UHGV virus genome: UHGV-0114730
DNA length: 31,702 nt
Reading direction: 5' to 3' (one strand)
DNA from: a virus
Shown piece by piece: positions 5,918 through 26,540 of this stretch. Position 1 is the first letter of the stretch, and every line of letters begins with the position of its first letter. The position numbers and the translations under genes are program-made. Under the pieces are notes generated by a model, which searched no databases, was not told where the DNA came from, and saw only the letters and a list, made by a program, of their open reading frames with translations.

Positions 5918-6038
5918 TTACCATAAAATGCTCAGGCTACCGCTTGGGATATCCCATGAAATGCTCAGTGTATACGCTTTATGCATAGGGTATAAAGGCT
6001 GCAATTGGCAACAATTGCGCTGACATGGAGATAAACTC

Positions 6039-6134
6039 ATGTTGAAACCAGTGAGAGTACGTCAGTACAATCGCTATCGTTTCGGACGTTGGGAGACGGT
6101 GCGTAAACACCGCCGTTCTTACCCAACGCGATGA
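6039..6134 (+). CDS. possible small basic ORF (31 aa, MLKPVRVRQYNRYRFGRWETVRKHRRSYPTR)
   Basis: Below track threshold; read directly from sequence in the A-to-cargo spacer; no RBS verified. Confidence 0.2.
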   Translation: MLKPVRVRQYNRYRFGRWETVRKHRRSYPTR

Positions 6135-6147
6135 AATGATATGCGAC

Positions 6148-8355
6148 CTAAGCGGTAGTATCTTCTATATTATTTTTCTCTTCATACATTTTAATAAAAT
6201 GTGAAACATCTCCCATAAGTTTAAATATTTCTTTAAATTGTTTGATGTAGATGTCAGGCGTTATTTCGCCCATGTCTGTTATATTTATCGAATCTGAGTG
6301 TGATCCTCTATTTATATATCGATAAAAAGCTTTGAAGTTACTGTTGCTCTCATTTTGTGCAAGCTTGTTCAATTCAAGTTGTAATTCGTTAGTTTTATGA
6401 ACAAATGCAAAGTAATATTCTAAGATATTCCTCATAGTATTAGGAATGACTACATTGTGAATTTTTCCATCTCTGGCATCCTTGAGTATTTGCCATAGAG
6501 ATTGATATTCATTTTGTAAACTATCTCTGCTGATGTTAGAAAAAGAGCTATATAGGTTTTTTGTTATTCTAAAAAGCTGATAGGTATTATTGAATTTTCT
6601 CTCTGAAATTGGTGCTAATTTTATTAGCTCATGAAAAAAATATAGATTATGAGTGAGGATTATCACTTTATCAGCAGAAGTGATAATGTCATAGTGAATC
6701 ATCGATGCTATATCATAGATATAGTTCTGTGATAGACTTGAAATGGGGTCATCAATAACGATTAAACTGTCTCGGTTGTCGAATTCATCTGTATTTGTTT
6801 GCCCCTTGCAATACTCAATAAAATAGAGGAATGTAATGAGGGTTTTTTCACCTTCGCTAAGAGATCTATATACGTTTTTACTTAGTGTATTATCTGAGCG
6901 AACTATAACGAAACTATTTTTTATGGTTGGGTGTTTATCAATATAGAAACAGGTAATGCCAAGGTTTTTTAATTTTGAGTTTATTGAGGAGATTGTTGTG
7001 TCGATATTGGATGTTTTATTTCTTAATTGTTTTATTTCATCATCAGTGTGGTTTATTTCGTTGTTGATAGAATCAATACATTCTTCGAGATTCTTGATAG
7101 TGATGTTGTTTTCAGCTTGAACTTTTTCTAAAACTTCCAGTTCTGTGTTGCAGTAGTTTCTCAATGCCCCCCAAAACTGATTTTGTATTTTACTTTGAGT
7201 AAGGTTAAATTGTTTTACCTTTTCATTAAGTGTATTAATTCTAACGTTATATTGTTTTATGTCTTTTAGAAGAGATTCTTCGATATCATTATCTTTATCA
7301 AGAGTTACACTGAGTGATGGATTTTGTATCTTGTTATTAATTAACTCAATGTTACTTTTTAGCATTTTCTCAAGGGAGGAAATGTGAGCGAGACTAGTTT
7401 TTCTTTCTTCAATTGTGATTGCCGTACAGTCGGTTAACTGTGTTTTTAGTAATTGAAGTTGTTCCTGAGTAGTGGATTCATAAATATGTTTTAGTTTTTC
7501 AATTGATGTTATTCTCTGAGCGTAGCTCTTATCAAAAATTTGCTCGAGTGCCTCTTTGAATTTATCATCAATGGTTTCTTTTTGACAAAAAGGGCAAGTG
7601 TCGTCAACTAAATAATCTTCCTTACCTTTTTTAACCCAATCTAGATTCTGAAGCTTTTTGATTGTTTCTGACAAATAGCTATTACTAGAATCAATGACAG
7701 GGGTCTTTAATAATTGTTCTTCATCAAAAGAAATAATATATGGATTATATGGGGATATTGTTTGTATGGTAGTGTTTTTATGATTCAACAATTCTCTGTA
7801 GTCAGTTAATAATTGATTTAAATCTATATCAGATAATCTAATAGAAGACTTCACCTTTGTGAAAAGGTTTCTTTTATTCTTGAGATACCCTGTCATTAAT
7901 GAGTTGATATCAGAGTTTCTTATGTGTTCGGTATTTAACCAGATTGATTCAGTGCAACTTGTTTCTGCTTCATTATTGCGGTCTTTAAATTTTCTACAAT
8001 TTGCTTTTGTTGCCTCTAGTTTTATTTTTAATTCTTTAACTATTTCTCTTTTCTTACTTATCTCTTTTTCGATTTCGGTGTTTTCTTTGCTTAATGTAAA
8101 AATGCCTTTTTGAACATCTTTATCAAAGAAGTTGTCTTCAATGAACTTTGTATTATAAACCAATGGACGATAGTTATTAATGTTTGTGCAGCGGCAGTCC
8201 CTATAGTCATCGTCTGCTGGATTATAGAAAAAATTTGATATGGTAGATTTCCCAGCTCCGTTTTGCCCGTAAAGGATATTTATTCTTTTTTCGAGGGATA
8301 TTTTCGTATATTTATTTTTGTCGTAGCTTGTTACATTTTTTAGACTAAGTTCCAT
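6148..8355 (-). CDS. cargo 1: ABC-type ATPase with zinc-hook-like coiled-coil insert and C-terminal RloC/PrrC-like putative anticodon-nuclease domain
   Basis: 735 aa; Walker A GQNGAGKST (aa 30-38, nt 8242-8268); CPFC (aa 254-257, nt 7585-7596) in long K/E/N-rich region; LSEGEK (aa 499-504); Walker B LIVIDDPISSLS (aa 531-542); R642-x3-E646 and H686; strongly AT-rich; sits where P2 has tin/old. Confidence 0.55.
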   Translation of the reverse strand: MELSLKNVTSYDKNKYTKISLEKRINILYGQNGAGKSTISNFFYNPADDDYRDCRCTNINNYRPLVYNTKFIEDNFFDKDVQKGIFTLSKENTEIEKEISKKREIVKELKIKLEATKANCRKFKDRNNEAETSCTESIWLNTEHIRNSDINSLMTGYLKNKRNLFTKVKSSIRLSDIDLNQLLTDYRELLNHKNTTIQTISPYNPYIISFDEEQLLKTPVIDSSNSYLSETIKKLQNLDWVKKGKEDYLVDDTCPFCQKETIDDKFKEALEQIFDKSYAQRITSIEKLKHIYESTTQEQLQLLKTQLTDCTAITIEERKTSLAHISSLEKMLKSNIELINNKIQNPSLSVTLDKDNDIEESLLKDIKQYNVRINTLNEKVKQFNLTQSKIQNQFWGALRNYCNTELEVLEKVQAENNITIKNLEECIDSINNEINHTDDEIKQLRNKTSNIDTTISSINSKLKNLGITCFYIDKHPTIKNSFVIVRSDNTLSKNVYRSLSEGEKTLITFLYFIEYCKGQTNTDEFDNRDSLIVIDDPISSLSQNYIYDIASMIHYDIITSADKVIILTHNLYFFHELIKLAPISERKFNNTYQLFRITKNLYSSFSNISRDSLQNEYQSLWQILKDARDGKIHNVVIPNTMRNILEYYFAFVHKTNELQLELNKLAQNESNSNFKAFYRYINRGSHSDSINITDMGEITPDIYIKQFKEIFKLMGDVSHFIKMYEEKNNIEDTTA

Positions 8356-8593
8356 TTTTATTTTTCTCTATTGTTTGTGTATATATGAAAACTGGTCAAA
8401 AATTGCTCTGGAAAAGACATGGCAATTACAAAAGATCTACCTTAGATGAGTAACATTTTCAAGCCACAGCTAAGCTTTCAGTTGCATGATTTTGCATTTG
8501 ATTTTGTGGTCTAAAACCTAAGATGAACACTTTGTTGGGTAAGGTGTGTGTATACGAATGCAACTGCATTAAAACCGCCCCATGAAGCGGGCG

Positions 8594-9816: not shown

Positions 9817-11588
9817 CAGTAAAACTCCAGAATGGTGGATGTCAGCGGAGTGCTGATACCGGCGGTGAGTGGCTCATTTAACAGGGCGTGCATGGTCGCC
9901 CAGGCGAGGTCGGCGTGGCTGGCTTCCTCGCTGCGGCTGGCCTCATAGGTGGCGCTGCGTCCGCTGCTGGTCATGGTCTTGCGGATAGCCATGAACGAGC
10001 TGGTGATGTCGGTGGCGCTGACGTCATATTCCAGACAGCCACGGCGGATAACGTCTTTTGCCTTGAGCACCATTGCAGTTTTCATTTCCGGCGTGTAGCG
10101 GATGTCGCGCGCGGCGGGATAGAACGAGCGCACGAGCTGGAACACGCCGACACCGAGGCCGGTGGCATCAATTCCGATGTATTCGACGTTGTATTTTTCG
10201 GTGAGTTTGCGGATGGATTCCGCCTGAGTGGCAAAGTCCATGCCTTTCCACTGGTGACGCTCAAGTATTCTGAATTTGCCACCGACCACCACCGGCGGTG
10301 CCAGTACCACGCATCCGGCGCTGTCGCCACGGTGTGACGGATCGTAACCAATCCATACCGGGCGGGAGCCGAACGGATTGGCGGCAAAGGGGGCATAGTC
10401 TTCCCATTCTTCCAGCGTGTCGACCATGCAGCGTTGCAGCTCCTCGAACGGGAACACCGACGCCTTGTCGTCAACAAATTCACACATGAACAGGTTTTTA
10501 AAATCGTCGGCGCTGTTTTCGCGTTTGAGCTGCTCAATGTCGAACAGCGTGCAGCCACCTTTCAGGGCGTCCTCAATGGTGACAATCTGCCGCCACTGGC
10601 CGTCCGCACAGAGAAGACCTCCGGCAAGGGCGTTATGACTGACGTCGATTTCCACGCGTTCGGCGGCGCTGGCGCGTCCCCGGTTGAACAGTTCACCCGA
10701 CCAGAACGGGTAGGCGTCGTGCGCCAGCGTGGACGGGGTGGAGAAATAGGTCGAGCGCAGGTGACTCTGTGAGGCCATACCTGATGCCACCTTACGCAGT
10801 ACCTGAAAATTCGGGATCCAGAAAATCTCGTCGACGTACAGGTCGCCGTTATGGCTCTGTGCGGTGTTGGAGTTGGTGCCGAGAAAAATCAGTTTTGCGC
10901 CGTTATTGCCCAGGACAATCGGGTCACCGGTCAGGTCAACGTCAACCAGCCGGGCAAAGGCGATGATGTATTCGCGGAACACATACGCCTGCGTTTTACT
11001 GGCCGACAGAAAAATCTGGTTATGACCGGTTTTCAGGGCGCGCAGCAGCGCCTCGCGGGAAAAATAAAACGTCGCGCCAATCTGGCGGGATTTCAGGATA
11101 TCGCGGATGCGGTGCTCAAGCCCGGCGCGATACCAGTGCAACTGATAGTCGAAAGACTGCTCAAAGAAAATCTGCTCCAGCTTTTCGATGGCCTCGTCAC
11201 TGAAAAAATTCTTTTTCGGTTTGCGACGCCCGCCTTTGTTGCGGTTAGCGACGTTCGGATTAAGGTCTGCCTCGTTGCCGGTCTGACTGTAGCGGTTTAC
11301 CCGTGCCAGTCGTTCAATCTGGCGTCCCAGCAGGTCAATTTCCTTGAAGTCACCGCCGGTTTTCTGCGGTTTGATGATGAGCTGGGTCAGTCGCGCTTCC
11401 AGACTCATTTCGACACGGCTGATGGGGGCAACGCTGTCCCAGCCGTCGCGCTGTTTCCAGCTCTGCACCGTCGGACGTTTCATCTGCAACATGGCGGCAA
11501 TCTGCGGCACGGAAAACCCCTGCCAGTACAGCAGCGCCGCCTGACGACGCGGGTCGTGTAAAAGAGTGGTGTCTGTGGTGATGGTCAT
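9816..11588 (-). CDS. P: terminase large (ATPase) subunit
   Basis: Track ORF 600 aa; start moved to ATG 11586-11588 (MTITTD...) giving 590 aa as in P2 P. Confidence 0.9.
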   Translation of the reverse strand: MTITTDTTLLHDPRRQAALLYWQGFSVPQIAAMLQMKRPTVQSWKQRDGWDSVAPISRVEMSLEARLTQLIIKPQKTGGDFKEIDLLGRQIERLARVNRYSQTGNEADLNPNVANRNKGGRRKPKKNFFSDEAIEKLEQIFFEQSFDYQLHWYRAGLEHRIRDILKSRQIGATFYFSREALLRALKTGHNQIFLSASKTQAYVFREYIIAFARLVDVDLTGDPIVLGNNGAKLIFLGTNSNTAQSHNGDLYVDEIFWIPNFQVLRKVASGMASQSHLRSTYFSTPSTLAHDAYPFWSGELFNRGRASAAERVEIDVSHNALAGGLLCADGQWRQIVTIEDALKGGCTLFDIEQLKRENSADDFKNLFMCEFVDDKASVFPFEELQRCMVDTLEEWEDYAPFAANPFGSRPVWIGYDPSHRGDSAGCVVLAPPVVVGGKFRILERHQWKGMDFATQAESIRKLTEKYNVEYIGIDATGLGVGVFQLVRSFYPAARDIRYTPEMKTAMVLKAKDVIRRGCLEYDVSATDITSSFMAIRKTMTSSGRSATYEASRSEEASHADLAWATMHALLNEPLTAGISTPLTSTILEFY

Positions 11589-20454: not shown

Positions 20455-22584
20455 ATGAGCACAAAATTCAGAACCGTTATCACCACTGCCGGTGCAGCAA
20501 AGCTGGCAGCGGCAACCGCGCCGGGAGGGCGGAAGGTCAACATTACCACGATGGCCGTCGGGGATGGCGGTGGTAAATTGCCTGTCCCGGATGCCGGACA
20601 GACCGGGCTTATCCATGAAGTCTGGCGACATGCGCTGAACAAAATCAGCCAGGACAAACGAAACAGTAATTATATTATCGCAGAGCTGGTTATTCCGCCG
20701 GAGGTGGGCGGTTTCTGGATGCGAGAGCTTGGCCTGTACGATGATGCGGGAACGTTAATTGCCGTGGCGAACATGGCCGAAAGTTATAAACCTGCCCTTG
20801 CCGAAGGCTCAGGGCGTTCGCAGACCTGCCGCATGGTCATCATCGTCAGCAGTGTGGCCTCAGTGGAGCTGACCATTGACACCACAACGGTGATGGCGAC
20901 GCAGGATTACGTTGATGACAAAATTGCAGAGCACGAACAGTCACGACGTCACCCGGACGCCTCGCTGACCGCAAAAGGTTTTACTCAGTTAAGCAGTGCG
21001 ACCAACAGCACGTCTGAAACACTGGCCGCAACGCCGAAAGCGGTAAAGGCTGCTTATGATCTTGCTAACAGGAAATATACTGCGCAGGATGCCACCACGG
21101 CGCGAAAAGGCCTTGTTCAGCTCAGTAGTGCGACTAACAGCACGTCTGAAACGCTCGCCGCAACGCCAAAAGCAGTAAAGACAGCATATGACCTTGCTAA
21201 CGGGAAATACACTGCACAGGACGCCACCACAGCGCGAAAAGGGCTTGCTCAGCTCAGTAGCGCCACCAACAGCGATTCTGAAACGCTTGCGGCAACGCCA
21301 AAGGCGGTAAAGGCAGCATATGACCTCGCTAACGGGAAATATACCGCACAGGATGCCACCACGGCGCGAAAAGGTCTTGTCCAGCTCAGTAGCGCCACCA
21401 ACAGCGATTCTGAAACGCTTGCGGCAACGCCAAAGGCGGTAAAGGTCGCGTATGACCTTGCTAACGGGAAATACACTGCACAGGATGCCTCCACAGCGCG
21501 AAAAGGGCTTGTTCAGCTCAGTAGCGCCACCAACAGTGATTCGGAAACGCTGGCCGCAACACCAAAAGCGGTGAAGTCTGCCTATGACAATGCTGAGAAA
21601 CGTCTTCAGAAAGATCAGAACGGTGCGGATATTCCTGATAAAAGATTATTCCTGCGCAATATTGGTGCAACAAATTCAACAACCATGTCTTTTAGTGGTG
21701 GTACAGGATGGTTCAGGCTGGCAACTGTAACCATGCCACAGGCCAGTTCCGTGGTTTACATAAGTCTGATTGGTGGTGCTGGATATAATGTTAACTCCCC
21801 TATGCAGGCTGGTATATCTGAACTTGTTCTTCGTGCGGGAAATGGAAATCCAAAAGGTCTTACTGGTGCGTTATGGCGACGGACATCGGTTGGATTTACT
21901 AATTTTGCATGGGTGAATACATCCGGTGATACCTATGATGTTTATGTTGAAATAGGTAATTACGCCACAGGTGTTAATATTCAGTGGGATTATACCAGTA
22001 ACGCCAGCGTAACGATTCATACATCACCATCTTATACAGCGAATAAACCAACAGGCCTGACAGATGGAACTGTATATGTAATTTACAGTTCGCACATTAA
22101 ACCGACTGCTGCTGATGTTGGGGCGTTGCCATTATCTGGAGGTCAATTGAATGGTGCACTGGGCATCGGAACATCCAGTGCTCTTGGCGGTAACTCGATT
22201 GTTTTGGGTGATAATGACACAGGCTTTAAACAAAATGGCGACGGTAATCTGGATGTTTATGCTAATAACGTTCATGTTATGCGCTTTGTCTCCGGTAGCA
22301 TTCAAAGTAATAAAACCATAAATATTACGGGGCGTGTTAATCCCACAGATTACGGTAACTTTGACTCCCGCTATGTCCGGGATATCCGGCTTGGTGGTGC
22401 CGCCACATACAAACCTGCGAACAATGGCATGACATGGACACATCAGGTACCGTCAGGGTGTGTATATACCGGCATTATTGTTCAGGATACCGGCTCAAAC
22501 TCTGCCGATAACATTGGTGGCGTATATTACAGACCGGTGCAGAAATACATTAACGGGACATGGTATAACGTGGCGCAGGTATAA
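20455..22584 (+). CDS. H: tail fibre protein H with internal tandem repeats
   Basis: 709 aa (P2 H recalled as about 669); conserved N-terminal region, repeat block, divergent C-terminal receptor-binding region. Confidence 0.9.
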   Translation: MSTKFRTVITTAGAAKLAAATAPGGRKVNITTMAVGDGGGKLPVPDAGQTGLIHEVWRHALNKISQDKRNSNYIIAELVIPPEVGGFWMRELGLYDDAGTLIAVANMAESYKPALAEGSGRSQTCRMVIIVSSVASVELTIDTTTVMATQDYVDDKIAEHEQSRRHPDASLTAKGFTQLSSATNSTSETLAATPKAVKAAYDLANRKYTAQDATTARKGLVQLSSATNSTSETLAATPKAVKTAYDLANGKYTAQDATTARKGLAQLSSATNSDSETLAATPKAVKAAYDLANGKYTAQDATTARKGLVQLSSATNSDSETLAATPKAVKVAYDLANGKYTAQDASTARKGLVQLSSATNSDSETLAATPKAVKSAYDNAEKRLQKDQNGADIPDKRLFLRNIGATNSTTMSFSGGTGWFRLATVTMPQASSVVYISLIGGAGYNVNSPMQAGISELVLRAGNGNPKGLTGALWRRTSVGFTNFAWVNTSGDTYDVYVEIGNYATGVNIQWDYTSNASVTIHTSPSYTANKPTGLTDGTVYVIYSSHIKPTAADVGALPLSGGQLNGALGIGTSSALGGNSIVLGDNDTGFKQNGDGNLDVYANNVHVMRFVSGSIQSNKTINITGRVNPTDYGNFDSRYVRDIRLGGAATYKPANNGMTWTHQVPSGCVYTGIIVQDTGSNSADNIGGVYYRPVQKYINGTWYNVAQV
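20968..21627 (+). repeat. 5 tandem in-frame copies of a 132-bp (44-aa) tail-fibre repeat inside H
   Basis: Unit starts at 20968, 21100, 21232, 21364, 21496; consensus ARKGLVQLSSATNS(T/D)SETLAATPKAVK.AYDLANGKYTAQDATT; last copy partial. Confidence 0.9.
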
Positions 22585-22587
22585 TTT

Positions 22588-23115
22588 ATGCAGCATTTGA
22601 AAAATATTACGGCGGGTAATCCAAAAACGGTTGAACAATATCAATTGACAAAGAACTTTGATGTTGTCTGGTTTTTTTCAGAAGATGGTAAGAACTGGTA
22701 CGAAGAACAAAACTATTTTGCTGATGACACGATAAAAATAGCGTACGGCAAAGATAATATCATCCGCTATGTGGAAAAGGATGTGACAGCTATCAGACCG
22801 GATGGATTAAGTGTTGTTGAAGTGACGGATATTACTGCTAACCGACGGGCGGACATTTCAGGGAACTGGATGTTTAAGGATGGCACAGTGATTAAACGAA
22901 TTTATACGGCAGAGGAATTGCAGCAGCAGGGAGAAAATCGGAAAGCCAGACTTCTAGCAGATGCTGAATCCGTGATTTTGCCGCTGGAGCGCGCTGTCAG
23001 GCTGAATATGGCAACAGATGAGGAGCGCAGTCGACTGGAGGCATGGGAACGCTACAGTGTTCTGGTCAGTCGTGTGGATCCTGCAAATCCTGAATGGCCG
23101 GAAATGCCGCAATAA
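22588..23115 (+). CDS. G: tail fibre assembly chaperone G
   Basis: 175 aa, directly downstream of H. Confidence 0.9.
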
Positions 23116-23551
23116 GTTGTATGGGCTATGGTGAGAGCTTACATATCTATGGCACAGAGTAAAGCCTAATCTGACAGTCCGCTCTGTGCTAGGAGCGGAC
23201 TCTGTTAAGGTGATTAAACGCTTGAGAGCGAATGTAGTTTTGATGCTAGCTGCTAATATGTAGCATCTTACCGGCTGTGTTAACGTTGGCCTGTCCAGCA
23301 AGGGTTACGGGCAGATAGTGAATGAGCACATCTTAAAGTCTAAACTTTGAATCAACGGCTCCTTGAGACAGACCAAGGCGGCAGGTGCCTTTAATGGCAT
23401 AACCGGCGCAGATCTGTGATGATGTTCACAACTAACCTGAGGTTTCAGTTTTCATACTCTGAGAGTACGATTGTTGTAGAATATTTATGTTGTATTATAT
23501 TTGAATTTTTTATGTAATGTTCTGACAATTACTGATTGAAGAGGGAAGGAG

Positions 23552-25006
23552 ATGGATTTTTCAGAACTAAATATACAACGGCTTTTTGGTCAAGAGGCTG
23601 CTGAAAGCGAAGAAATTGATAGGCTTAAAGAATATTATTTTAAAAGTAAGATATACTCCAAGGTTATTGTTGATCTTCCTTTGAGGATATTGGTTGGGCA
23701 TAAAGGGATCGGCAAATCAGCTTTGTTCAAAGTTGGTATGGAAGATGAGAAAAATAACGGAAGGCTGACTTTCATTATAAAACCAGATGATATAGCAGGT
23801 ATTGGCGGTAAAGATGATGACTTTCTATCTCTTATAACTCGTTGGAAACTTGGCATTAATGAAATCATAGCAAACAAGATCATGACCTACTTCGGGCTAT
23901 TCGACGAGGATAAAAGCCTAATTAATAAAGCATTGGGGGCCGGCGTTACATTATTAGATGTTTTAAGTGAAACTATTAATATCAAAGACAAGATTGATTT
24001 ATCTAGAATTAACTCAGAATTAAAGGCTAAGGCAATACGAAATTTTTTAGACACAAATAAAGTCTCAATATATATAGATGACCTTGATAGAGGATGGCAA
24101 GGAAGACTAGAAGATATCCAGAGAATATCCGCACTACTTAATGCTGTTCGAGATATTTCCAGTGAAAATAGAGGGGTTTATTTCAGAGTTAACCTGAGAT
24201 CGGATGTGTATTTTCTTTCAAGAACTTCGGATGAGTCCACTGATAAAACTGAAGGCTCTGTCATTTGGTTCGACTGGTCTAATCATGAAATATTTGCTCT
24301 TTTGATAAAAAGAGTTGCAACCTTCAATGGGCATTATGGCTTAAGTGATAAAGAGCTTCTACAAAAAAAACAATCAGATCTGATGAATTACTTAACAGAT
24401 ATTATTGAAGACAGATTTACAGGGAGTGGCAAATGGTCTAATGCACCCATGTATAAAATTTTAATGTCATTGATTAGAAGAAGGCCTAGAGACCTTGTTA
24501 AGCTTTTGACTCTAGCCGCACGTAAGGCTCATGATGATGAATCATCAATAATCAAGACCAAACATCTGCAGGCAATATTAGATGAATATTCGCAAGGGAG
24601 ATTACAAGATACGATCAATGAATTTATATCTGAATTACCAGATGTAGAGCGTCTTATACTTGGGATGAAACCCTCAAAGCGGCAACTTAAAGCATCCGAA
24701 AATTATAATTACACTACTAACTCTTTACTGGCAAAATTAAAATCAATAGAACAGCAAGGAGCATTTAAAGGACGAAACAATAAAAACATTTCAACAAAAG
24801 AATTAGCAGCCTTTCTATATAAAATAGGTTTTATTACAGCAAGGAAAGTTTTACCTGATGGAACAATAGATAGAAAATACTTTGAACAAAATAGGTATCT
24901 TTCCAGCAAGTTTGCTGACTTCGGCTATGATTGGGAGGTACATCCTGCATACAGATGGGCATTGCAGCCAGATAATATTTATGATCTCATTGATAGTGTA
25001 GATTAA
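23552..25006 (+). CDS. cargo 2: P-loop NTPase of unassigned family (candidate single-gene defence protein)
   Basis: 484 aa; Walker A GHKGIGKS (aa 49-56, nt 23696-23719); Walker B IYIDDLDR (aa 173-180); basic patch RRRPRDLVKLL (aa 309-319); AT-rich; own GGAGATG RBS; sits where P2 has Z/fun. Confidence 0.6.
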   Translation: MDFSELNIQRLFGQEAAESEEIDRLKEYYFKSKIYSKVIVDLPLRILVGHKGIGKSALFKVGMEDEKNNGRLTFIIKPDDIAGIGGKDDDFLSLITRWKLGINEIIANKIMTYFGLFDEDKSLINKALGAGVTLLDVLSETINIKDKIDLSRINSELKAKAIRNFLDTNKVSIYIDDLDRGWQGRLEDIQRISALLNAVRDISSENRGVYFRVNLRSDVYFLSRTSDESTDKTEGSVIWFDWSNHEIFALLIKRVATFNGHYGLSDKELLQKKQSDLMNYLTDIIEDRFTGSGKWSNAPMYKILMSLIRRRPRDLVKLLTLAARKAHDDESSIIKTKHLQAILDEYSQGRLQDTINEFISELPDVERLILGMKPSKRQLKASENYNYTTNSLLAKLKSIEQQGAFKGRNNKNISTKELAAFLYKIGFITARKVLPDGTIDRKYFEQNRYLSSKFADFGYDWEVHPAYRWALQPDNIYDLIDSVD

Positions 25007-25012
25007 TATCGA

Positions 25013-25038
25013 TAAGCGATCTTGCCAAAGATCGCTTA
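25013..25038 (+). terminator. perfect 11-bp-stem hairpin immediately 3' of cargo 2 (possible terminator)
   Basis: TAAGCGATCTT-GCCA-AAGATCGCTTA starting 7 nt after the stop; weak U-tract. Confidence 0.4.
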
Positions 25039-25226
25039 CATCTTGTATGTCTATCAAAAGAACCTAGATCGCTGTAACTTAGTACATATAAAAGTTAATA
25101 AATCAAATCTAGTATTTTGCTATAAAGATAAATGTCCGCTTCTTGCTCAAAGCAGACTGTCAGATTTGATAACTTTTGGGCTATGTAAATTGTCAGTCGG
25201 AAAATGAGTAAGTTCAAATCAGGACA

Positions 25227-25249
25227 GGCGGGCGGATTGCCCGCCTTTT
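25227..25249 (+). terminator. intrinsic terminator upstream of FI
   Basis: GGCGGGC-GGATT-GCCCGCC hairpin followed by TTTT. Confidence 0.6.
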
Positions 25250-25349
25250 CTTTATCTGTTGTTTCATCCACTGACCAGCCAGGTCAAATAGCGTCTCATG
25301 CTCTGCACAACAGAAAATAGTTGCACCCATTAACCACGGAGTTAAACGG

Positions 25350-26540
25350 ATGAGTGACTATCATCACGGCGTGCAGGTGCTGGAGATTAACGACGGCACC
25401 CGCGTCATTTCCACCGTATCCACGGCCATTGTCGGCATGGTCTGCACGGCCAGCGATGCGGATGCGGAAACCTTCCCCCTCAATAAACCTGTGCTGATTA
25501 CCAATGTGCAGAGCGCAATTGCAAAGGCCGGTAAAAAAGGCACGCTGGCGGCATCGTTGCAGGCCATCGCCGACCAGTCAAAACCGGTCACCGTTGTCGT
25601 GCGCGTGGAAGACGGCACCGGCGATGACGAAGAAACGAAACTCGCGCAGACCGTTTCCAATATCATCGGCACCACCGACGAAAACGGTCAGTACACCGGA
25701 CTGAAAGCCCTGCTGGCGGCGGAGTCGGTAACAGGTGTTAAACCGCGTATTCTTGGTGTGCCGGGACTGGACACCAAAGAGGTGGCTGTTGCACTGGCAT
25801 CAGTCTGTCAGAAGCTGCGCGCTTTCGGGTATATCAGCGCATGGGGCTGTAAAACCATTTCCGAGGTGAAAGCCTACCGTCAGAATTTCAGCCAGCGTGA
25901 GCTGATGGTCATCTGGCCGGATTTCCTCGCATGGGATACGGTCAGCAGCACCACCGCCACCGCGTATGCCACCGCCCGTGCGCTGGGTCTGCGCGCTAAA
26001 ATCGACCAGGAGCAGGGCTGGCATAAAACGCTGTCCAATGTCGGGGTGAATGGTGTTACCGGCATCAGCGCATCTGTATTCTGGGATTTGCAGGAGTCCG
26101 GCACCGATGCTGACCTGCTTAACGAGTCAGGCGTCACAACGCTGATTCGCCGTGACGGTTTCCGCTTCTGGGGTAACCGTACCTGCTCTGATGACCCGCT
26201 GTTCCTCTTTGAAAACTACACCCGCACCGCGCAGGTGCTGGCCGACACGATGGCTGAGGCGCACATGTGGGCGGTGGACAAGCCCATCACCGCAACGCTG
26301 ATTCGCGACATCGTTGACGGCATCAATGCCAAATTCCGTGAGCTGAAAACAAACGGCTATATCGTGGATGCGACCTGCTGGTTCAGCGAAGAATCCAACG
26401 ATGCGGAAACCCTCAAGGCCGGAAAACTGTATATCGACTACGACTATACACCGGTGCCTCCTCTCGAAAACCTGACCCTGCGCCAGCGTATTACCGATAA
26501 ATACCTGGCAAATCTGGTCACCTCGGTTAACAGCAATTAA
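25350..26540 (+). CDS. FI: contractile tail sheath protein
   Basis: 396 aa, size and order as P2 FI. Confidence 0.92.
   Translation: MSDYHHGVQVLEINDGTRVISTVSTAIVGMVCTASDADAETFPLNKPVLITNVQSAIAKAGKKGTLAASLQAIADQSKPVTVVVRVEDGTGDDEETKLAQTVSNIIGTTDENGQYTGLKALLAAESVTGVKPRILGVPGLDTKEVAVALASVCQKLRAFGYISAWGCKTISEVKAYRQNFSQRELMVIWPDFLAWDTVSSTTATAYATARALGLRAKIDQEQGWHKTLSNVGVNGVTGISASVFWDLQESGTDADLLNESGVTTLIRRDGFRFWGNRTCSDDPLFLFENYTRTAQVLADTMAEAHMWAVDKPITATLIRDIVDGINAKFRELKTNGYIVDATCWFSEESNDAETLKAGKLYIDYDYTPVPPLENLTLRQRITDKYLANLVTSVNSN

Follow-up and report, generated by a model that had tools for sequence, protein, structure and literature searches.

A divergent Fun/Z-family ATPase gene as a probable single-gene phage-exclusion cargo in the Z/fun slot of a P2-like prophage

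The gene, its slot, and its flanking DNA

The window, the whole 31,702-nucleotide stretch analyzed here (UHGV virus genome UHGV-0114730), holds a gene whose host element is a complete P2-like prophage adjoining yegQ in E. coli. The open reading frame occupies positions 23552 to 25006 on the plus strand, starts with ATG, and encodes 484 amino acids, exactly as had been proposed, and is identified below as a Fun/Z-family (NCBIfam Sll1717-family) AAA+ ATPase gene. Its predicted placement between G and FI is borne out by its flanks, which match Caudo_TAP (22588 to 23115) and Phage_sheath (25350 to 26540). It is also AT rich, as anticipated, with a GC content of 0.348 and a GC3 of 0.281, compared to 0.566 and 0.682 for the sheath gene, and the prophage backbone in general has a GC content of ~0.56 versus ~0.35 for the open reading frame. 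Comparison with a Klebsiella copy gives a dN/dS of 0.032 at a dS of 0.98; the gene is real and under strong purifying selection.

As the original prediction held, the slot corresponds to the Z/fun locus of P2, where the NC_001895 record places fun(Z) between G and FI. Homology to the backbone of P2 and three E. coli P2-like prophages stops at ~23200 and restarts at 25121 to 25139, and the cargo junctions are identical to those of P2 (23200/25121 in the window, 15358/17418 in P2). Between them lies a 1,920-bp cassette (23201 to 25120, plus strand) consisting of one gene and no second gene, while the P2 cargo at the same slot spans 2,059 bp and carries fun(Z) on the opposite strand. The G-FI interval is described in the literature as a variable hotspot for anti-phage cargo in P2-like prophages, and the genomes agree: the flanks are found in 1,022 to 2,073 of 5,426 E. 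coli genomes and the whole query cassette in only 4. Other occupants of the slot include Shedu, HNH, S1 peptidase, DUF4145, and NUDIX+HAD genes. Comparison of the interval across P2-like prophages shows that the query gene is not conserved among P2 relatives, and it is absent from every sequenced P2-like phage having the flanks.

Both junctions are marked by the arms of an inverted repeat, which are 85% complementary. The 33-nt left arm (23168 to 23200) is conserved P2 backbone that forms a hairpin by itself (-20.1 kcal/mol, z -3.4) and is also present in P2-like prophages with other cargo. The right arm (25134 to 25166), likewise backbone, is terminator-like on the minus strand and is kept in P2 and other P2-like prophages.

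The G stop codon (23115) and the start of the open reading frame (23552) are separated by 436 bp, as had been noted. The description of this gap as AT rich holds for its proximal 172 bp (GC content of 0.366) but not for positions 23116 to 23379 (0.46). The first 85 bp of the latter are conserved P2 backbone, and the remainder (23201 to 23379, GC content of ~0.46) is cassette-specific noncoding DNA absent from the Klebsiella copy and from the other P2-like prophages compared. By contrast, the proximal region (23380 to 23551, plus strand) accompanies the gene and is shared with the Klebsiella lambdoid-prophage copy at 74% identity over 172 bp. Within it, conservation is high over the proximal ~90 bp, which contain a repeated TTTATGT(T/A) motif, and from ~23462 onward the two copies are near-identical despite a coding dS of ~1. 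A putative plus-strand promoter can be read by eye here (-35 TTGTAT at 23490 to 23495, -10 TGTAAT at 23513 to 23518), although a consensus scan did not flag these hexamers. The ribosome-binding site expected for the gene is present as the purine-rich AGAGGGAAGGAG at 23540 to 23551. A structured or small RNA partner in the gap was considered and rejected, since Rfam gave no match in 22900 to 25500 and only the proximal 172 bp accompany the gene.

Two hairpins had been reported before FI, and both exist, but only the first belongs to the cargo. It lies within the variable cassette at 25013 to 25038 (plus strand), 7 nt past the stop codon, and has an 11-bp stem without a U-run (dG -15 kcal/mol, z -6.2). 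The second (25226 to 25246, plus strand) is a GC-rich backbone hairpin followed by a T-run, resembling an intrinsic terminator (dG -20.1 kcal/mol, then a U-run) and placed upstream of the FI late-promoter region. The DNA around it is 91 to 97% identical to P2 and relatives, and in P2 the homologous DNA directly upstream of FI is annotated with the pF activator site and a transcription start.

Motifs and predicted fold of the protein

The Walker motifs named in the original prediction can be read directly from the translation at residues 49 to 56 and 173 to 180. Walker A is GHKGIGKS (G49 to S56; codons 23696 to 23719, plus strand), with G52, G54, and K55 invariant among 58 divergent relatives. 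Walker B is IYIDDLDR (I173 to R180; codons 24068 to 24091, plus strand), in which D176 and D179 are invariant and D177 is conserved in at least 90% of the same relatives. The segment RRRPRDLVKLL (R309 to L319; 24476 to 24508, plus strand) is also where it had been placed, but rather than a basic patch it is the family's lid (sensor-2-type) motif, with P312 and R313 invariant in the 58 relatives and marking the start of a helix (312 to 328) in the structural model. A further C-terminal motif, DWEVHPAYRWALQ (residues 460 to 472; 24929 to 24967, plus strand), is conserved only in the query's clade, where E462, H464, P465, and R468 reach at least 90% in alignment A2; the Fun(Z) clade has YQIFYGLAKAL aligned there and does not keep the motif residues. 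As had been foreseen, there is no transmembrane segment (maximum Kyte-Doolittle 19-residue mean of 0.99), and a Pfam search of the 484-residue protein detected no nuclease, TIR, SIR2, or protease domain.

The AlphaFold2 (AF2) model (pLDDT 81.7, pTM 0.81) predicts an ORC/Cdc6-STAND-type AAA+ fold composed of N-terminal helices, a P-loop core, a helical insertion, a lid, and a winged helix. The insertion follows strand 2 (residues ~81 to 168; 23792 to 24055, plus strand), with modeled helices at 91 to 114, 121 to 142, and 156 to 168 between strands at 72 to 76 and 171 to 175. This segment varies more and is more prone to indels than any other part of the family, as column entropy and gap fraction both peak there in each of the two alignments, and it is a candidate specificity region. 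The predicted winged-helix region spans residues ~385 to 445 (24704 to 24886, plus strand). Its putative recognition helix, ELAAFLYKIGF, is hydrophobic, so the sequence gives no support to a DNA-reading winged helix. Neither the Pfam search nor the AF2 model reveals an effector domain.

The protein has the architecture of ORC/Cdc6 AAA+ proteins, namely, Walker A and B motifs, the strand-2 insertion, a sensor-2 Arg lid, and a C-terminal winged helix. Its best structural matches are the archaeal "ATPase_2" AAA+/winged-helix proteins (PDB 2fna and 2qen) and the ORC/Cdc6 clade, with which it shares the helical insertion after strand 2, the conserved lid Arg, and the winged helix after the lid. It differs from ORC/Cdc6 in having DD rather than DE in Walker B and in having no link to replication. 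Sequence profiles do not place it in this group, as the query has no Pfam match, to PF24389 or Cdc6 families included; 28 of 58 relatives match the first ~60 positions of PF24389 only, mostly below threshold. Solved structures show no significant sequence match to the query beyond the P-loop, and viral structures (BFVD) yield generic AAA+ proteins only, at a TM score of 0.3 or lower. A match to a known phage structural or assembly NTPase (terminase, packaging, or clamp loader) was not found, consistent with the original reading of the gene, and the PHROG matches are to families of unknown function only.

Kinship with Fun(Z) and comparison with other families

Two elements of the original prediction, that the protein is unassigned and, by implication, that it is an unrelated replacement of Z/fun, are not borne out by family analysis. 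The protein matches the NCBIfam model NF047389 ("P-loop ATPase, Sll1717 family") at 207.4 bits (E 4.2e-61), well above the curated cutoff of 75 bits, and covers the model over its full length, with residues 12 to 471 aligned to positions 1 to 454 of 454. Identical copies of the query carry this same name in RefSeq. The NCBI pipeline likewise assigns fun(Z) DNA (99.9 to 100% identity) to the Sll1717 family in 13 E. coli RefSeq genomes, and Fun(Z) homologues at 62 to 88% identity bear the same family name. Judged from these annotation names, an indirect but strong line of evidence, P2 Fun(Z) would itself belong to NF047389. The family name conveys no function.

Profile comparisons support this kinship directly. 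An hhalign comparison of the query clade to the Fun(Z) clade gives a 98.0% probability (E 1.9e-13) over 435 aligned columns at ~17% identity. The query-family HMM detects P2 Fun(Z) at E 1.4e-7 (nominal database of 10^6) and all 23 Fun(Z)-clade members at E 5.1e-6 or better, while unrelated P-loop neighbours, used as a negative control, score E 1.1 or worse. Pairwise BLASTP of the query against Fun(Z) is not significant by itself, and the shallow profile A1 reaches only 38% probability against the Fun(Z) clade. On the strength of the deeper profiles, the query is homologous to Fun(Z) over its full length.

The two proteins resemble each other in many respects. Fun(Z) (NP_046777) occupies the same slot with the same junctions, is a single gene without a partner, and is of similar size (528 versus 484 residues). 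Shared motifs include Walker A at 49 to 56 (GEKGTGKT in Fun(Z)), Walker B, (L/I)R(S/P)D(V/I)(Y/F), DK...W, RPRD(L/I), and FL(Y/F)...(I/V), and the Fun(Z) lid, RPRDILRML, aligns with RRRPRDLVKLL of the query. They differ in Walker B, where DDLD of the query faces DGID in Fun(Z) (LFIDGID aligned), and in the C-terminal WEVHPAYRWAL motif, which Fun(Z) lacks. There is no nucleotide similarity, and the orientations are opposite (minus in P2, plus here). Because the query and fun(Z) are of the same family and homologous end to end, the difference from P2 amounts to a swap within the Fun/Z family, with a very divergent member lying in opposite orientation between the same junctions.

P2 fun(Z) is an abortive-infection or lysogenic-conversion gene known to exclude T5-like phages, T-even phages, and other Myoviridae; cloned fun(Z) blocks T5 by itself, and it also confers FUdR sensitivity. 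With identity of only ~17%, this phenotype is not simply transferable to the query, whose phage range probably differs from that of P2 Fun/Z. Searches of the literature collection covered here returned nothing on Sll1717, NF047389, WP_063122021, or PDC-M28, and a whole-word search for FunZ found no mechanistic study.

Other P-loop families fit less well. The query resembles KAP NTPases (PF07693) in its DD-type Walker B, its P-R lid motif, and the insertion inside its P-loop domain, and one relative carries the KAP name in UniRef. The resemblance is as weak as originally judged, and KAP assignment was rejected: the query has no Pfam match, 6 of 58 relatives match only below threshold, and the insertion is soluble, with no transmembrane helices (the maximum hydropathy of the whole protein is 0.99). 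No Pfam or PADLOC match links the query to Avs, NACHT, or NB-ARC models, and a few of the 58 relatives give sub-threshold matches to nSTAND1/3/5 or NACHT. Compared to Avs, bNACHT, RADAR RdrA, and BREX BrxC, the query has neither a repeat-type sensor nor an effector, and at ~480 residues it is far shorter than the STAND-type and ORC-like defense NTPases of 800 to 2,000 residues. A reading of H464 (in WEVHPAYR) as the STAND "MHD" histidine was discarded, as the residue aligned with it in the Fun(Z) clade is Phe.

In PADLOC 2.0.0, the query matches component C of the phage defense candidate PDC-M28. The match is marginal and partial for the query (E 0.0026, 14.7 bits), with query residues 169 to 272 in register with positions 170 to 272 of a 480-residue model, and 24 of 58 relatives match it, at best with E 8.5e-8. 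PDC-M28 is a multigene candidate, whereas the query is solitary; it has no confident component C match, and its one-gene cassette has no adjoining A and B. In rare relatives, the same core follows an N-terminal Schlafen nuclease or CHAT protease domain that is catalytically intact; the Schlafen fusions keep an intact Ex4(E/D)xK motif. The latter fit the scheme of prokaryotic Schlafen (pSlfn) proteins as an effector with a fused sensor (PMC13056530), but the query lacks a Schlafen domain, and the text of that paper names no ATPase of its type as a fusion partner.

Distribution, rival functions, and a proposed mechanism

The gene is rare and patchily distributed, always solitary, and carried as cargo by several unrelated temperate phages and islands; it recurs in phage hotspots. 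The cassette, comprising the gene and its putative promoter, moves between unrelated phages; one copy resides in the Klebsiella lambdoid prophage, adjoining a NACHT protein gene. Across 80 loci from 80 species, no neighbour recurs, and a hidden partner was rejected, with no flank and no small open reading frame in common among the loci compared and the top neighbour family present in at most 4 of 80. Some homologues lie in phage defense hotspots or adjoin restriction-modification (RM) and NACHT genes, and many are lone insertions among housekeeping genes. Defense genes are about 2- to 3-fold more frequent among immediate neighbours than among open reading frames at least 7 kb away (~12 to 16 versus ~6 of 149 among those listed), a modest and not robust enrichment (Fisher p 0.04 to 0.22 among those listed) that is given no primary weight here. 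Identity within the family is unusually high across phyla, at 43 to 64%, which would usually be atypical for a fast-evolving sensor.

We consider it probable that the open reading frame encodes a divergent Fun/Z-family, prophage-encoded, single-gene phage-exclusion (abortive-infection) ATPase, and a defense role of some kind appears likely. One alternative is that the protein is the sensing or regulatory part of a defense and is unable to act alone, with killing carried out by a partner encoded at another site in the host or on a different element, or by a recruited host factor. The missing effector domain, the relatives that place the core beside Schlafen or CHAT effectors, the 24 of 58 relatives matching a component of a multigene candidate, and the NACHT protein next to the Klebsiella copy all point that way. 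So does the documented use of host factors by STAND defenses, such as that of EF-Tu by Avs7. We nonetheless regard this as unlikely, given that no neighbour recurs in 80 species, that the cassette travels among unrelated phages as a single gene with its putative promoter, and that fun(Z) needs no companion when cloned to block T5.

To a similarly small degree, the gene may have no defense function and instead be an accessory gene encoding, for instance, a DNA-binding ATPase that tunes host or prophage physiology through lysogenic conversion or control of induction or replication. The lone homologues among housekeeping genes, the weak enrichment of defense neighbours, and the high cross-phylum conservation are in keeping with such a role, as are the replication initiators and regulators within the fold family, the FUdR sensitivity caused by fun(Z), which is a physiological phenotype, and the partition systems and CDT toxin reported among the non-defense cargo of P2 hotspots. 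Against it stand the homology to a validated anti-phage gene of the same slot, the recurrence in phage defense hotspots and beside RM and NACHT genes, and the immune effector domains fused in relatives. It is very improbable that the protein is a housekeeping ATPase of a mobile element, whether one that initiates replication or loads a helicase or one that selects transposition targets in the manner of TnsC/MuB/TniB/IstB. Across the 80 loci, no partner of the transposase, helicase, or origin type recurs, the window has none, the cassette ends are hotspot junctions common to all cargo types rather than ends of its own, P2 already has the gpA replication system, and nearby transposases are of the IS3/IS481 type. 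IS3/IS481-type transposases are not known to use TnsC/IstB-like ATPases, and a transposition ATPase of that kind was rejected, with no transposase partner recurring in the 80 loci.

Returning to the single-gene exclusion ATPase, we infer the steps past nucleotide binding as follows. The protein would be made in the lysogen from its own putative promoter and, since its Walker B reads DD and not DE (Fun(Z) has DG), would behave as a nucleotide-dependent switch and not as a motor. A cue from infection by another phage would be sensed, most plausibly via the hypervariable helical insertion, and would lead to an ATP-bound oligomeric state, as is typical for ORC/Cdc6 and STAND proteins. The Schlafen and CHAT fusions fit such a sensor or regulator role for the core. 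To stop the infection, the oligomer would need no dedicated catalytic effector: it would bind or sequester some phage or host component or nucleic acid that is essential, or it would engage a host factor.

That Fun(Z), the founding member of the family, is a defense gene is already known, and the query is a divergent member of that family and a good candidate for being a variant of Fun/Z whose target range differs. A more tentative possibility is that Fun/Z-family proteins, the query clade included, are minimal effector-less ORC/Cdc6-STAND-like ATPases that execute immunity themselves, with the helical insertion setting specificity. They may do so, for example, by ATP-dependent assembly on replicating or damaged DNA or by sequestering a conserved phage component. 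If so, they would form a mechanistic class distinct from Avs, bNACHT, RADAR, and Schlafen systems, in which a sensor is paired with an enzymatic effector, and two deep clades of one P2 slot would guard against different phage groups.

The Z/fun slot and its cargo

The 484-aa ORF (23552-25006, +) lies where the original prediction placed it, between the Caudo_TAP tail-fibre assembly gene G (22588-23115) and the tail-sheath gene FI (25350-26540), in a complete P2-like prophage integrated beside yegQ in E. coli. Its composition is foreign, with GC of 0.348 and GC3 of 0.281 compared to 0.566 and 0.682 in the sheath gene, in agreement with the AT-richness noted by eye. The ORF has its own purine-rich RBS (23540-23551), and the three motifs read from its protein are present: Walker A GHKGIGKS (49-56), Walker B IYIDDLDR (173-180) and RRRPRDLVKLL (309-319). 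As had also been stated, the protein contains no hydrophobic, potentially transmembrane segment and no nuclease, TIR, SIR2 or protease domain. Two descriptions of the flanks hold in part. Both hairpins 3' of the ORF fold well (-15 and -20.1 kcal/mol), but the second belongs to the backbone; the gap after G is AT-rich only in the 172 bp adjoining the start codon, and its first 85 bp are P2 backbone. A 179-bp non-coding segment of the cassette (23201-23379, GC about 0.46) is absent from the Klebsiella copy of the gene and the other P2-like prophages compared, and has no Rfam match.

Alignment with P2 and with three P2-like prophages of E. coli whose cargo differs delimits a variable region of about 23201-25120, the junctions of which match P2 positions 15358 and 17418 exactly. 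In P2 these enclose fun(Z), annotated in the P2 record as [quoted passage not shown]. The slot flanks occur in 1,022-2,073 of 5,426 complete E. coli genomes and the window cargo in only 4. Other occupants of the slot are Shedu, HNH endonucleases, an S1 peptidase, DUF4145, a small "lysogenic conversion protein", and NUDIX plus HAD. The proposal that the G-FI gap is the Z/fun locus and a variable hotspot is thus borne out. It has been called a hotspot in two preprints, and the other hotspot, gpA-gpQ, is the subject of Rousset et al. 2022.

The cargo is bracketed by a backbone-owned 33-nt inverted repeat (23168-23200 and 25134-25166), conserved in P2 and in relatives with different cargo; its arms are 85% complementary, and the left arm alone forms a strong hairpin. 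Fun/Z-family cargo occurs in both orientations, - in P2 and + in the window and Serratia, a pattern that would be consistent with the arms being sites of inversion or recombination. In the classical old/tin slot, from gpA to portal, an AT-rich island (about 6000-8500) holds a gene for a 735-aa AAA_13 ATPase (6148-8355, -; Pfam E 9e-111) that matches the single-gene PADLOC candidate PDC-S06 over its full length (E 1.3e-249). The window therefore carries cargo in both hotspots. Within the tail-fibre gene H (20455-22584), 21001-21588 comprises 4.5 tandem copies, 87% matching, of a 132-bp (44-aa) unit encoding a recurring tail-fibre segment, ...LSSATNS(T/D)SETLAATPKAVKAAYDLANGKYTAQDATTARKG..., over which spurious 40-aa ORFs recur in another frame.

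Relationship to P2 Fun(Z) and predicted fold

The observations behind the original prediction are confirmed and its interpretation stands in part, but the gene does not represent an unassigned family that has taken the place of Z/fun. Searches of Pfam and PADLOC with the protein gave no significant match, and its two PHROG matches are both to families without an assigned function. NF047389, the NCBIfam model for the "P-loop ATPase, Sll1717 family", matches it over the whole length with a score of 207 bits (cutoff 75), so the protein is not unassigned. Annotations of sequences 62-88% identical to P2 Fun(Z) (NP_046777) read "P-loop ATPase, Sll1717 family" or "funZ protein", and in 13 RefSeq E. 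coli genomes fun(Z) DNA (99.9-100% identity) is named an Sll1717-family P-loop ATPase. Direct BLASTP against Fun(Z) was not significant; the same alignment sets Walker A at equal residue numbers, RPRDILRML facing RPRDLVKLL, and matches the C-terminal helix. Profile-profile comparison of a divergent family alignment (58 relatives at 24-52% identity) with a Fun(Z) alignment gave 98% probability and E 1.9e-13 over 435 collinear columns, and a shallower family alignment, A1, returned the same alignment at lower confidence. With a nominal database of 10^6, the family HMM retrieved P2 Fun(Z) at E 1.4e-7 and 23 of 23 Fun(Z)-clade sequences at <=5.1e-6; the best unrelated sequence among 822 neighbour ORFs, other P-loop ATPases included, scored E 1.1. 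Together, the shared motifs, the HMM and profile results and the common family name show that the protein is a very divergent homologue of the Fun(Z) it replaces. The two share slot, family, collinear columns and Walker A numbering, but they are encoded on opposite strands with about 17% protein identity and no nucleotide similarity. The ORF is thus a deeply divergent Fun/Z (Sll1717) family member sitting in the Fun/Z slot.

An AlphaFold2 model computed from 34 homologues has good confidence (pLDDT 81.7, pTM 0.81). In it, strand 2 is followed by a long helical insertion (residues ~81-168), and a helical lid and a winged helix are also present. Across the 58 relatives, G52/G54/K55 of Walker A, D176/D177/D179 of Walker B, R216, K232, P312-R313, D353 and E357 are nearly or fully invariant, and a C-terminal WE(I/V)HPAYRWAL motif is likewise conserved; variability and indel load are greatest in the helical insertion. 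RRRPRDLVKLL had been called a basic patch, and its conservation, with P312-R313, instead marks it as a lid (sensor-2-type) motif. Family members show sub-threshold matches to AAA_16, ORC-CDC6-like, ATPase_2, nSTAND and KAP models, in keeping with the caution placed on the KAP resemblance. The protein has no sequence-level link to solved structures, and no specific viral structural relative was found.

Spread of the family

The family is large and widespread, yet rare. At 50% identity it falls into 1,456 clusters, of which 266 reach E <=1e-30, and about 147 of about 100,000 species representatives, from many phyla and at 43-64% identity, fit the search patterns. Family genes occur in only 4 of 72,556 plasmids and 1 of 50,697 phage records. 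The latter, at 24% identity, is ORF1 of the Pseudomonas Pf inovirus PfAC09 (L020, 5968-7470), a full-length relative annotated only as "DNA-binding protein" and located at the genome end beside the excisionase, in the Pf accessory region. The gene turns up repeatedly as cargo of phages. A Serratia fonticola P2-like prophage carries a member in the same G-FI slot at 62% identity. In that locus (L016), a 75-aa ORF (10547-10774, +) after the family gene and a DUF6232 gene between S and V on the opposite strand (2461-2832, -) look like additional small cargo. The P2-like viral contig IMG/VR 3300030580_000559 (L103, 795-2219 and 5010-5966) has a member at 62% identity in the old/tin slot, with a P2-type portal gene about 2.8 kb away, so both P2 hotspots carry cargo of this family. 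A copy at 94% identity, widespread in K. pneumoniae, sits at a lambdoid prophage end past gpJ and a Peptidase_S74 tail fibre (L001-L004, 9770-11641, -), convergent with a probable bacterial NLR-type defence gene encoding a 623-aa NACHT/NB-ARC protein. Other members accompany ParDE and ArdA on a Nitrosomonas mobile element, lie between type I and type IIG restriction systems in P. syringae, or are lone insertions amid housekeeping genes.

The E. coli and Klebsiella copies have only the ORF and 172 bp upstream in common, and dN/dS between them is 0.032 at dS 0.98. About 90 bp before the start codon (23462-23551) are almost identical despite near-saturated synonymous sites. What moves is therefore a single gene together with its regulatory region. 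Within this stretch the motif TTTATGT(T/A) recurs and could serve as an operator or promoter element.

Possible function

The Walker B DD (or DG), taken with the ORC/STAND-like architecture, points to a switch governed by nucleotide and not to a motor. An infection cue, most plausibly read by the variable helical insertion, would trigger ATP-dependent oligomerization, and since no enzymatic effector is present, the assembly itself may block infection, either because it sequesters or binds some essential component or because it engages a host factor. The P2 record notes that fun(Z) also confers FUdR sensitivity, a hint, if a speculative one, that the cue might be disturbed DNA replication or nucleotide pools. 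According to PMC8594841, sensitivity to Fun/Z extends to all Markadamsvirinae, to all T-even phages and to every other member of the Myoviridae tested.

About 5% of the best 150 representatives bear N-terminal extensions, namely Schlafen AlbA_2 in three proteins, CHAT in one and a cold-shock domain in one; the Schlafen extensions retain the Ex4(E/D)xK catalytic motif and the CHAT extension its His/Cys dyad context. Prokaryotic Schlafen nucleases fused to sensor modules are validated anti-phage effectors (PMC13056530), and in the Schlafen and CHAT fusions the Fun/Z-type core occupies the sensor or regulator position. No neighbour gene recurs across 80 loci. Immediate neighbours of family genes give strong matches to HmaC, type III methyltransferase, PD-Lambda-1, AbiU, Shedu, DUF4297, DUF499 and PD-T7-4, whereas ORFs at least 7 kb away in the same loci match only PDC candidates and two mad3/AriA-type ATPases; this enrichment of about 2-3-fold has weak statistics and so counts only as supportive. 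The PADLOC candidate PDC-M28C is matched by 24 of the 58 relatives. Alternatively, the protein could be a sensor that needs a trans-acting effector, the product of a non-defence accessory gene, or a mobile-element ATPase. On balance, we consider a defence role for the ORF likely, and distinctly more so when the variant with a trans-acting effector is included.

More than the gene as such, it is the pairing of two highly divergent alleles of an unsolved classical Abi system, together with the anatomy of the family, that gives this ORF its interest, through what they make testable.
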